64,000 nt of DNA from the sequence record PV730302.1, one strand, 5' to 3'. The first letter of the stretch is position 1. The number at the start of each line of letters is the position of its first letter. Source of the stretch: a phage. This document shows, one piece after another, positions 19,507 through 46,991 of this stretch. Position numbers and translations under genes: made by a program. Under the pieces are notes generated by a model. The model was not told the origin of the DNA, did not search any database, and worked only from the letters and a program-made list of their open reading frames with translations.

Positions 19507-19737
19507 TTAATCCTTTGGAGTCAATTCAATAGTGAAGTAGAAATTAGCGTTCTCAACATGATAACGATAATCTACGTTATTATCAGGAGAAGTGAATTCA
19601 ATATTCCTGACGTTAAGTGGGTCAATATCAATAGGAAGGCCTTTAACATCCCGTAATATCAATTTAATAAAATAAGGGAGTGCTTCGAAGTCTTCCATTC
19701 CATCTAAAAGTGGAGTGATATTAATCTGATGTTCCAT
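19507..19737 (-). CDS. hypothetical protein (start uncertain)
   Basis: ORF overlapping the gene 55 3' end; first ATG at 19737, track start is GTG; weak SD. Confidence 0.3.
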
Positions 19738-20278
19738 ATAAAAAATCCAATTCACCAACTTTAGGTTCGGCACTCTTATCAGACCCTGGTGCTTTAGTTA
19801 AAGAGGTTTCATACTGAGTCATTTTGTCGTAGATATCTTGGATAAAGGTTTCATCTGCAATACCTACCATATCGTCATCATTACTGTCATAGACATTATG
19901 GACGAAGTAGCTATATTTCTTTGCCATTTCTTTACGTTCTTTTTTGATACGCTGAACGAAGGCATTAAAACAAGCCATAGTGATATATGCATGTGGGTTG
20001 TCGTATTTTGTTTCGTCGAAATTGTGAAGACCTTTAATCGAAGCTTCGATTCCATCAGCAATCATTTCTTGCTTCCAGGATTGGGTATACCCTGAGAAGT
20101 TGAAACGTTTACTTAGTCCTTCAGCAATGAGCATAATAGCCAAGCCAATAACGTCGTTCTGGCGAACTATTTTATTAGGATCGGTATTTTCTCTGAGCTC
20201 TGTTTTCCATTGGGTAATAGCTTTCAGAAGCTCCTTATTATTTACATAGTTATTTTTAGTCAGTTTAATTTCGGTCAT
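19721..20278 (-). CDS. 55: late-transcription sigma factor gp55
   Basis: 185 aa, near-identical over long stretches to recalled T4 gp55 (NYVNNKELL..., [54 protein letters not shown]). Confidence 0.93.
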
Positions 20279-23201: not shown

Positions 23202-23326
23202 TAAAGAACCCACATGTTAGTTACAACAAATAACCATTGAGCAGGATACTCAACACCCATAATACGAACCGCATCGTTCAGAGATTCGGCTAAAGCATAA
23301 AATGTGTAGCCATAAAAATTAATCAT
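23201..23326 (-). CDS. small peptide (41 aa), putative
   Basis: ATG overlaps the gene 49 stop (ATGA) and its stop overlaps the next ATG (TAATG). Confidence 0.3.
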   Translation of the reverse strand: MINFYGYTFYALAESLNDAVRIMGVEYPAQWLFVVTNMWVL

Positions 23327-23796
23327 TTAAGCGATTTCCTCAGTTGTTTTTTGAATGAATCCACCATTTGTTTCTTAGTGGCAGATTCATTATAAGTCAT
23401 TCCGTGTGAAAGCATTTCAGCAATCATTTCTTCCTTACCCAACCTGCTGAACTCTTTGGTTTTATCAGGAACGAAATTAGGATGAATATTGTTTTCAGTA
23501 TAATCAGCTTTCAGATAGACCAGCAAATTCTCTAACCATTCGAGGTAGTCAACGTTTTGACCTTTAAGACCAGAACGGTTGAACTTATGCTTCATTTGTC
23601 CTTCTGCAGCATTGCACAGGTTACATAGTAAACCACGAACCTTACCGGCTTTTGGCCCGTTTAACTCGTGGTCGTGGTCAAGGTGGTTACTTTGAACATC
23701 AGGGTTTAATTCACGTTTACAAATCAAACACTTACCACATTGTGCATCATAAAGTTTTTGTTTTTCTTCTTTGTATAATTTGCCGGTCAACAACAT
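23323..23796 (-). CDS. 49: endonuclease VII (Holliday-junction resolvase) gp49
   Basis: 157 aa, about 85-90 percent identical to recalled T4 gp49 including the zinc-binding CxxC motifs and HLDHDHELNGPKAGKVRGLLCNLCN. Confidence 0.95.
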   Translation of the reverse strand: MLLTGKLYKEEKQKLYDAQCGKCLICKRELNPDVQSNHLDHDHELNGPKAGKVRGLLCNLCNAAEGQMKHKFNRSGLKGQNVDYLEWLENLLVYLKADYTENNIHPNFVPDKTKEFSRLGKEEMIAEMLSHGMTYNESATKKQMVDSFKKQLRKSLK

Positions 23797-23801
23797 AATA
23801 A

Positions 23802-23833
23802 ACCCTTACCATTATTAGATAAGGGTATTTATT
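23802..23833 (-). promoter_or_regulatory. gene 49 translational-control hairpin (SD sequestered) with late-promoter-like AATAAATA
   Basis: Minus-strand ACCCTTA-TCTAATAATGG-TAAGGGT, perfect 7-bp stem, 3' arm containing the SD AAGGG 5 nt from the ATG; AATAAATA (7/8 of TATAAATA) just upstream. Confidence 0.5.
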
Positions 23834-23925
23834 AATATCCTAATAGTTTAGCAGTGCAACTTAGCACTAACAACAATCCGAATAAAACAACTCCTACCCA
23901 AAATACCGTAATAAGAGCCTCCATA

Positions 23926-24102
23926 TCAGACCCCATAGAATGAACGATGCAAACGTTTAAATTGACGAATCATCTTTTTAGTAGGACGGGTGTATAATCC
24001 TACACAAGTGGCCATAAACTGGTCAGTTGGACTTCCTTTGATAAGAAGTTTCCAGACCTTACCGCCATTTAATTTTTCGGTATAGACTAATACAGTTTTC
24101 AT
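23926..24102 (-). CDS. small hypothetical protein (58 aa)
   Basis: ATG 24102 overlaps the upstream stop (ATGA). Confidence 0.35.
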   Translation of the reverse strand: MKTVLVYTEKLNGGKVWKLLIKGSPTDQFMATCVGLYTRPTKKMIRQFKRLHRSFYGV

Positions 24103-24401
24103 GCGACCTCAAATTCATTATCATCGTTGGTCCAAAAACACCAGAATGAAGCTTTAGTATCTTCAAACATTTCTTTAGTGTATTCGTATACCTTACCATT
24201 GAATTCGATAGCAGTTACGCCGATGATTTCAGGGTCGCCCCATGGAGACATTTCCACCTTAAGGATTTTAACTTCAGCGCCTTCACAGAGCTCACCTGAC
24301 TCAAAACCACGATTACCATTTAATTCAGGCCAGTCAACATAATGGTCGACATCTTCTTCAGTAATACGAACAGTTTTACCTTCAAATTCAAATAAATTCA
24401 T
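24099..24401 (-). CDS. hypothetical acidic protein (100 aa)
   Basis: ORF. Confidence 0.5.
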   Translation of the reverse strand: MNLFEFEGKTVRITEEDVDHYVDWPELNGNRGFESGELCEGAEVKILKVEMSPWGDPEIIGVTAIEFNGKVYEYTKEMFEDTKASFWCFWTNDDNEFEVA

Positions 24402-24574: not shown

Positions 24575-24690
24575 ATCCAAACTCCATATCGATTAATTCA
24601 TTGTTTGAAGGTTCATTATACTCTATTTCGGAATCGTTGTAAACCGGTTCCTCTGGCTCGGTAGTTTCCCACCGAGCGACATACCATGGC

Positions 24691-35162: not shown

Positions 35163-35254
35163 ACAAAAGTCCTTTGTTGTTTTATACTATTTGCCTTTCG
35201 GCCTTAACCGATAGCGATTACCAAAAGCTAAAGCTCTACGGTTAGTATTATTAT

Positions 35255-41575: not shown

Positions 41576-41974
41576 TTATTTGTAGGTCTTCATCCAATTC
41601 TTGAACAAAGCCGCGACGTCTTTCTCTTTAACGTTCAGTTTAATGTCCAACATTTTACCACCGGCAGCACGTGTCTGACGAATCTTAGCAGTACCGGTTT
41701 CGCCATTCCACTCAACATAATACTGCCCAGTGTTCATTGCAATACCATCGCCGTAGTCTTCATTTTTAGAAGTTGTGAAGGCCAGCTTCATAGTCTTAGA
41801 TACACGAGCCTGCATGCCAGTCTGAAGGGCATTACGAACGCGAATAACTTGAGGAGTGGCCTGGGTCAGGTTCTCATTCAGTTCTTCAGTGAACTCTTCA
41901 GATTCAAACATCGCCAAAAGTTCTTTAGATGCAGGAATTACATTCTCTGCGATAAATTCATTATAAGTTTTCAT
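41576..41974 (-). CDS. internal-protein-like capsid cargo (CTS-tagged, 132 aa)
   Basis: N-terminus [10 protein letters not shown]. Confidence 0.65.
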
Positions 41975-42455
41975 ATGCTTTCCAAGTACCTGTTTTAAAT
42001 GTTGAAATCACGCGCTTAGCACGATTAGGAGTTTGTTTATACCAACGGGATTGAGCCAGGTTAACTGCCGCATCGTTCCAACGTTTCTGTTGGAGCATAC
42101 GTAAAGAGTTAGTGAACCCTGCTACGCCTGCTTCACCCATTTGGAAGACCATGTTAATTAAAGCACAACGACGAACTTCGTCCAGTACATCATAAACAGG
42201 TTTCAATTTAGGATTACGCAGAATAGCTCTACGAGCATTTTCAACCGATCGGTTAAAGAGTTGTTCAGCTTCAGCCATAGTAATACGACCATTACAAACT
42301 CGACCCATAAGCTTATCAAGTTCAGCACGAGCAACATCTTTAGAAGGGTTCTTAGTAATCAATTGGCCAATACCAATAGTCCAATAACCTTCAGTGTCTT
42401 TATAAAGATTTAAATCAAGACCTTCGTCTTGACGTAACATATCAAAAATATCCAT
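41961..42455 (-). CDS. e: lysozyme (endolysin) gene e
   Basis: 164 aa, about 80 percent identical to recalled T4 lysozyme; catalytic E11 and D20 conserved. Confidence 0.95.
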
Positions 42456-46185: not shown

Positions 46186-46515
46186 TTAGAGTTGTACATC
46201 ACTTCTGCAATATTCTAAAAATAATTTATCGTTGTCTACCGTATCCCAACGACGCCAAGATGGATTCCAGACCAAAGCGTTGTCACCACAATCATTGAGC
46301 TTAAAATGGTCGTAGTACATAGCTATACGTCTAGTTTCGTCACCAGAGAACCCCAGTATAGGCTCGCCGTGGGTGTGATACATATGATGGTGCATTGAGA
46401 GGTCGCATTTGTAAAACATCTCACGTTTACCACGAACGAACAAGAAGGCTTGCCCATTCATATAGAATTCTTTATCTGTTTTCAAAAGATATTTGAATAC
46501 TGAATCTTTATGCAT
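46186..46515 (-). CDS. hypothetical His-rich protein (109 aa)
   Basis: Start at ATG 46515 with AGGAGG SD. Confidence 0.5.
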   Translation of the reverse strand: MHKDSVFKYLLKTDKEFYMNGQAFLFVRGKREMFYKCDLSMHHHMYHTHGEPILGFSGDETRRIAMYYDHFKLNDCGDNALVWNPSWRRWDTVDNDKLFLEYCRSDVQL

Positions 46516-46545
46516 AAGTCCTCCTACCACATCCATGTGGTTAAA

Positions 46546-46773
46546 TTATTTTCCTAACGAAACACGAGTAGGTTTTTTACCAAAATAGTCTTCGTAAGAA
46601 CCATCTAAACGGCCTGCTTTAGACCGACAATACGAATCATACTTTTTGTAATAAGTCATCTCGGTATTATAACGTGGGTGTCTATCAGCCATAATAATAC
46701 TTAACGGCCAACCTTTGGCATAATCGCGAAGACCATTTATTTTACGAATGTATCTTTTCTTTAATTTTAGCAT
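46546..46773 (-). CDS. hypothetical basic protein (75 aa)
   Basis: ORF. Confidence 0.4.
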   Translation of the reverse strand: MLKLKKRYIRKINGLRDYAKGWPLSIIMADRHPRYNTEMTYYKKYDSYCRSKAGRLDGSYEDYFGKKPTRVSLGK

Positions 46774-46991
46774 GAGCTCGGATACCAGATTTTACCATCG
46801 GCCTGAGCAACGAAGGTGCGACCAGCTTCTTCACCATAACAAGAGCTATTCAGCCAATCTTCGAGACGAACTTCACCGTCATAATCATCGAGCTCAACAC
46901 CGAAATCCTGGGCAGAAGCCATATCTTTTACTTTCTTATACAGTGCAGCCAGTTCAAGAGCAGCTTTTTCTAATTCATTAATATCAGACAT
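46767..46991 (-). CDS. tandem-paralog family member 4 (74 aa, C-terminal ...WYPSSC)
   Basis: Start at ATG 46991 with AAGGAAAT SD; shares acidic helical N-terminus, Y-x-P block and terminal SS-x-C with the three upstream paralogs. Confidence 0.5.
   Translation of the reverse strand: MSDINELEKAALELAALYKKVKDMASAQDFGVELDDYDGEVRLEDWLNSSCYGEEAGRTFVAQADGKIWYPSSC

Follow-up and report, generated by a model that had tools for sequence, protein, structure and literature searches.

Background

In bacteriophage T4, genes e, soc, 49 and I-TevI have in common that a helix sequesters the Shine-Dalgarno (SD) sequence and/or the AUG and thereby lowers 30S binding (Uzan and Miller 2010, PMC3014915). The best-documented member of this class is the leader of gene e, for which the transcripts that start at the late promoter are missing the 5′ portion of the structure and are translated efficiently; gene 49 is included in the same class by listing (PMC3014915). 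For hairpins of the same class, Edgell et al. (2010, PMC2988022) refer to Barth et al. (1988). The genes of I-TevI, I-TevII, I-TevIII, segB and Aeh1 mobE are alike in this respect, each having a late promoter in or beside a hairpin that sequesters the ribosome-binding site on long early/middle transcripts (PMC2988022). The I-TevI-type homing endonucleases are, however, encoded by mobile-element genes with unrelated sequences, whereas gene 49 serves a core phage function.

The late promoter box lies at positions −13 to −6, and its T(−13) is poorly conserved in T4 relatives (Nolan et al. 2006, PMC1524935). In T4 itself, 32 of the 50 late promoters listed by Geiduschek and Kassavetis (2010, PMC2988020) have a perfect TATAAATA, and nine have A at −13. 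The published late consensus of phage Aeh1 is of the CTAAATA type (PMC2988020, PMC1524935).

Gene 49 and its leader in the window

The window, that is, the whole stretch of 64,000 nucleotides of phage DNA analyzed here (record PV730302.1), belongs to a Dhakavirus. Its gene 49 stretch is 98% identical to that of Enterobacteria phage IME341, a member of the JS98 group of T4 relatives. Gene 49 (23323..23796, minus strand) encodes recombination endonuclease VII, of 157 aa. The product matches the Pfam families Endonuclease_7 and Endonuc-dimeris and shares 87% identity with T4 gp49; the identification of this ORF as gene 49 in the first-pass annotation is therefore upheld.

Read on the minus strand, 23833..23794 is AATAAATACCCTTATCTAATAATGGTAAGGGTTTATTATG, and the sequence read 5′ to 3′ from 23840 is ggatatTAATAAATACCCTTATCtaataatGGTAAGGGTttattATGttgttgacc. 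The order of elements is AATAAATA (23833-23826), ACCCTTATC (23826-23818), a 7-nt loop (23817-23811), GGTAAGGGT (23810-23802), TTATT and the ATG (23796). The motif and the hairpin fill 23802-23833 exactly, the first A of AATAAATA being 23833 and the last base of the 3′ arm 23802, which agrees with the span originally assigned to the element. AATAAATA reads as a gp55-type late promoter box at positions −13 to −6 and is the same in T4. It was first described as abutting the 5′ arm; the two do adjoin, but they share one base, the final A of the box, with which the arm begins.

In the RNA, the core helix is formed by the 5′ arm ACCCUUAUC (indicated by RNAfold and by the covariation described below) and the 3′ arm GGUAAGGGU, which close the loop UAAUAAU. 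The first-pass annotation had proposed a 7-bp hairpin with an 11-nt loop. The hairpin is real, but the stem predicted by RNAfold has 9 bp and the loop 7 nt, two pairs, U.G and C-G, being added to the shorter stem; the calculated energy is −11.6 kcal/mol for the longer version and −6.1 kcal/mol for the shorter one. The SD, AAGGG (23807-23803, positions −11 to −7), lies within the 3′ arm, as had been claimed. In the minimum-free-energy (MFE) fold, an optional outer A/U helix of 6 bp (23834-23829 with 23801-23796) closes over the last bases of the leader. Its 5′ strand, UAAUAA, overlaps both the box and the TAA of the upstream ORF, and its 3′ strand, UUAUUA, includes the A of the AUG. This outer helix is weak and is not conserved beyond leaders of the T4/JS98 type. 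From the published box position, late transcription is predicted to start at an A within the 5′ arm, 6 nt past the box (23820), which would give a late 5′ UTR of 24 nt. The arrangement of hairpin and late promoter at the start of gene 49 is confirmed.

The gene 49 leader of T4 (NC_000866) is AATAAATACCCTTATCtatttaaGGTAAGGGTTTATTATG. T4 and the window agree exactly in the box variant AATAAATA, in both 9-nt arms, in the SD and in the 5 nt that separate the 3′ arm from the ATG; only the loop differs (UAUUUAA in T4). Because of this identity, the element in the window is orthologous to the gene 49 leader of T4: it has the same place before an orthologue of endonuclease VII, and its sequence can be aligned. 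The match to the known T4 arrangement noted at first pass is therefore borne out by the box and the arms as well as by the inclusion of T4 gene 49 in the class (PMC3014915). The element is thus not new: it is the gene 49 leader previously described for T4, here in a phage closely related to it. What had been scored as a 7/8 match to the late consensus is the A(−13) form, and this is the departure from the consensus that occurs most often among natural T4 late promoters (PMC2988020). The predicted T4 start (46877-46881, about 46879) had no match in one supplement file of a T4 dRNA-seq study (bioRxiv 10.1101/2024.04.04.588121).

The upstream neighbour is different in the two phages. In T4 it is pin, whose TGA lies 4 nt before the box and 11 nt before the stem, whereas in the window it is a hydrophobic ORF of 34 aa, the TAA of which (23834-23832) overlaps the late promoter box and lies 5 nt before the core stem. 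This ORF, MGSDMEALITVFWVGVVLFGLLLVLSCTAKLLGY (23832-23936, minus strand), is unannotated, has one hydrophobic helix and takes up the approximately 100 nt that separate gene 49 from the DUF7279 gene; Pfam and PHROG gave no match for it. Among the fetched loci, its stretch is common only to IME341 (L001). SHP1 and MX01 match the region as a single aligned piece, and JS98-type matches come in two. Should this ORF be translated, the outer helix would be abolished by ribosomes terminating at its stop codon. As a matter of speculation, they could also open the first pairs of the core, with some coupled early translation of gene 49 as the result.

Chance and signal within the window

The window sequence alone makes the fold only moderately unusual. 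The hairpin has z = −1.98, with 7 of 200 shuffles as stable, and falls within the most stable 1.9% of all 43-nt windows; among the 167 ORF-start regions, that of gene 49 ties for second and third place in structure. These values leave some room for a chance inverted repeat beside a chance octamer in an A/T-rich stretch, or for a DNA cruciform or antisense element. The composition of the window argues against the octamer being fortuitous. ATAAATA occurs eight times on both strands together, against 26 ± 5 expected in shuffles, an approximately threefold depletion, and the late-promoter motif is informative because ATAAATA is so strongly avoided. An ORF of 110 aa or more starts 22-29 nt downstream of six of the eight NATAAATA sites, and most of the surviving copies precede ORF starts at this distance (54986, 51308, 42455 and 23796). 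No late-promoter motif was found on the plus strand at the gene 49 leader. As shown in the next section, comparison with related phages contradicts both chance and a DNA or antisense structure; these readings were rejected, and we regard them as extremely unlikely.

Other copies of ATAAATA in the window include a back-to-back divergent pair (57373, plus strand, and 57395, minus strand) before ORFs of 200 and 149 aa, as well as sites at 35252 (minus) and 61477 (plus). The most structured −40 to +3 region of the 167 ORF starts belongs to a start at 1639 on the minus strand (about 1639-1680, −18.0 kcal/mol), near which no late-promoter box was found.

Conservation of the leader in T4-like phages

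Scans of IMG/VR for gp49, in two rounds, gave 46 and then 72 loci. Left out were four high-G+C loci that are not T4-like, L116, whose leader matches that of L103, and L092, in which the start codon is unclear. All 57 distinct upstream regions contain the box core NNTAAATA, which ends 19-33 nt before the start codon and has been kept although the sequence farther upstream is unrelated between clades. It is likewise present in all 43 distinct folded leaders from T4-like phages. The stems, in turn, are clade-specific yet complementary: the types found include CCCTTATC/GGTAAGGG, GGTTCATC/GAGGTGAACC, CTCTTATC/GAGGTAAGAG, CCTCTATA/TATAGGGG, GAGTCAT/ATGACTC and AATGACACC/GGTGTTATT.

A plain MAFFT alignment misplaced the 3′ arm in the most divergent leaders, and a covariance model was therefore used to align the set anew (49 leaders, of which 30 are distinct). 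In this alignment, 92.4% of the cells of an 8-pair core are paired, compared with 70.0 ± 1.8% in shuffles, none of 500 of which reached the observed value; when the 3′ partner was slid by 1-3 columns as a control, pairing fell to 39-47%. Changes on both sides are seen in six of the eight core pairs among the 30 distinct aligned leaders, and the covariation score is 0.626 versus 0.226. It is these covariation and slid-partner results that contradict an origin by chance. Because an alignment made with a covariance model leans toward structure, each leader was also folded independently. A hairpin that starts in or at the box was formed by 42 of the 43 distinct leaders, and its end ranges from 5 nt before the start codon to the last base of that codon. 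The 43rd leader, that of locus L104 (IMGVR_UViG_2974770551_000001, ~945-991), follows the same logic with another layout: its 5′ arm lies upstream of the box, most of the TATAAATA box is in the loop, and the helix has 11 bp (TTCCTCCAATA/TATTGGAGGAA, −16.3 kcal/mol, z = −3.9), so that the predicted late start still removes the entire 5′ arm.

The strand on which the structure acts can be judged from two features. In 39 of the 43 leaders, the sense RNA folds more stably than its complement (mean −12.6 vs −8.7 kcal/mol), and the U.G pair is retained in 23 of the 30 distinct aligned leaders. Together these indicate a structure of the mRNA strand, and they speak against a DNA or antisense element. 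A covariance model built from 29 leaders, including that of the window, finds one sense-strand match per locus, at the gene 49 start. Rfam is without a family for this leader, and no Rfam match at E ≤ 1 was obtained in 23300-24300.

The conserved parts of the leader also bear on the possibility that the element is an intrinsic terminator, which would end the upstream early unit before gene 49 and make early silence a matter of absent transcript, not of SD masking. A terminator scan does flag 23826-23802 (nine pairs, four of them G-C, a 7-nt loop and the tail TTATTATGTT), and like a Rho-independent terminator the leader has a stem-loop followed by a U-rich run. This terminator-like tail is common to leaders of the T4/JS98 type. 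Of the 43 distinct leaders, however, only 8 carry a U-rich tail (5 or more U in 8), and 14 have no more than 3 U, whereas the helix, the occlusion of the SD or AUG and the promoter box are kept in all. Moreover, the 3′ arm extends as far as the AUG in the majority of clades, where the “tail” thus consists of coding sequence. Since the U tract is unconserved and the 3′ arm so often reaches the AUG, termination does not look like the conserved function; the SD in the 3′ arm and the tie to a promoter box further distinguish the leader from Rho-independent terminators, and the stem itself is A/U-rich. Reviews describe T4 gene 49 as poorly translated from longer transcripts, which implies read-through (PMC3014915). 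For these reasons, we consider a terminator in place of SD masking unlikely, while granting some likelihood to partial, leakage-limiting termination in the T4/JS98 clade.

A hairpin could instead be a target for RNase or a protective stem for the upstream message, affecting RNA processing or stability with no block to translation. Stable stems at gene boundaries often influence decay, and processing of the long transcript near the gene 49 hairpin was reportedly discussed by Barth and colleagues in 1988. Such a role would leave unexplained why the SD or start codon is constantly in the 3′ arm and why the late box always sets +1 inside or after the 5′ arm, and it is, in our opinion, very unlikely.

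In the Aeh1-like clade, the box is a/gCTAAATA. As this is the published late consensus of Aeh1, the box follows the gp55 specificity of each phage. The structure of the gene 49 leader is kept in Aeh1-like, RB43-like and Acinetobacter-phage-like genomes, which is deeper than has been reported for the gene e leader, since those of Aeh1, 44RR, 25 and 31 have no apparent structure (PMC3014915). On balance, we lean toward the view that the module of late promoter, hairpin and SD before gene 49 is an ancient, structurally constrained leader that compensatory substitutions have maintained in Tevenvirinae as well as in RB43-like, Aeh1-like and Acinetobacter-phage-like genomes, with a box that tracks the gp55 specificity of each clade, and that the nested 12-kDa product of T4 is a quirk of that phage.

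The nested product is annotated in T4 as starting from an internal GTG of gene 49 (CDS 46382..46699, 12 kDa). In the window, the corresponding codon is GTT (codon 53 of gene 49, 23640-23638, minus strand). GTG stands at this position in 7 of 48 loci, and several close relatives of T4 have GTA. Judged by codon identity, the nested product looks specific to T4 and would not be a conserved feature; where the internal GTG is absent, as it is in most loci, read-through RNA would therefore give rise to no protein derived from gp49 at that codon. What the comparison adds to the known picture is small: the breadth of the covariation and the lack of conservation of the T4 internal GTG.

The proposed translational switch

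The leader in the window is, very probably, the orthologue of the T4 gene 49 leader acting as a two-promoter translational switch. We infer the 5′ ends, the source of the read-through RNA and the size of the translational effect as follows. Early in infection, the host sigma-70 RNA polymerase would read through gene 49 from upstream promoters. In the read-through RNA, the 9-bp helix ACCCUUAUC/GGUAAGGGU would form and bury the SD, so that 30S could not bind and endonuclease VII would not be made from the first start codon. After the onset of replication, polymerase modified by gp55, gp33 and gp45 would recognize AATAAATA and start at approximately 23820, inside the 5′ arm; as the late RNA would then be without six of the nine bases of that arm, it would form no helix and would be translated.

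Partition-function folding is consistent with these steps. In RNAs that start 60-200 nt upstream, the SD is predicted to be base-paired in the local helix, with a probability of being unpaired of 0.001. In RNAs that start at 23819-23822, this probability is 0.36-0.47 (about 0.47 for 23819-23821), and the predicted MFE is −4.8 to −6.1 kcal/mol over 84-87 nt; the modelled late RNA is unable to form the inhibitory helix. The original reading of an SD hidden in read-through RNA and open in late RNA is thus reproduced in the model. Among the relatives, the SD is more open in the late form in 50 of 57, a value to be taken as a trend only, given that the fixed “SD window” of −13 to −5 takes in loop bases in short-stem clades and so inflates the “read-through” values. 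The late box places the predicted +1 inside the 5′ arm in the window, and a predicted +1 within or 3′ of the 5′ arm is the same in all distinct relatives examined. Since the helix is of moderate stability (−11.6 kcal/mol), repression may be partial.

The late machinery is represented in the window by a gp55 homologue (ORF 19721-20278, minus strand) that matches PHROG 234, “late sigma transcription factor”, with E = 8.9e-69; the same product has no significant Pfam family.

A candidate early promoter of the sigma-70 type, TTTACA-17-TATAAT (24615..24643, minus strand), agrees with the consensus at 11 of 12 positions, although promoter-like matches in the region are no commoner than in shuffles. 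It sits in a 116-nt intergenic gap about 820 nt upstream of gene 49; the intervening ORFs lie close together on the same strand, and a pattern scan of the minus strand over this interval found no terminator-like site other than the leader. This promoter is a plausible source of the read-through RNA. No MotA-box pattern was found within 12 kb upstream of gene 49; read-through would therefore have to come from early promoters. In the window as a whole, the MotA-box-like pattern TGCTTNA-N11-13-TANNNT occurs 13 times (10 of these on the minus strand), compared with an expectation of 3.1 ± 1.9, an excess that would be consistent with T4-type middle promoters in the early region.

Endonuclease VII cuts branched DNA, and its delay is presumably explained by the harm that could follow if it were made before there are intermediates of replication and recombination to be resolved. 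With a switch of this kind, a late function can be housed within an early transcription unit. For the window, the result confirms the annotation of a known regulatory element and provides an internal control for the prediction of late promoters together with RNA structure. The covariation across distant T4-like phages, with a box that co-varies with gp55 specificity, gives modest support to the T4 model.

Gene e and downstream genes in the window

A second member of the class is found in the window at gene e, which encodes the T4-type lysozyme (Pfam Phage_lysozyme; ORF 41961..42455, minus strand). Its leader, TATAAATACCTCCTatactcAGGAGGTattATG at 42485-42453, has a perfect TATAAATA box leading into a 10-bp helix in which the SD is masked (−14.1 kcal/mol, z = −2.8), and its start region is as structured as that of gene 49 among the 167 ORF starts. 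The logic is the same as in the gene 49 leader, in that the box immediately precedes or overlaps the 5′ strand of the helix, and the two cores are calculated at −12.2 (gene e) and −11.6 kcal/mol (gene 49). The stem, ACCTCCT/AGGAGGT, is unrelated to that of gene 49, and the box of gene e, unlike that of gene 49, is the perfect consensus.

At the other end of gene 49, the stop codon overlaps the start of the next ORF (ATGA, 23323-23326, minus strand), which has 41 aa and belongs to PHROG 3350, of unknown function. With this overlap, late transcripts from the gene 49 promoter would carry the downstream genes too, and these genes are possibly translationally coupled on them.
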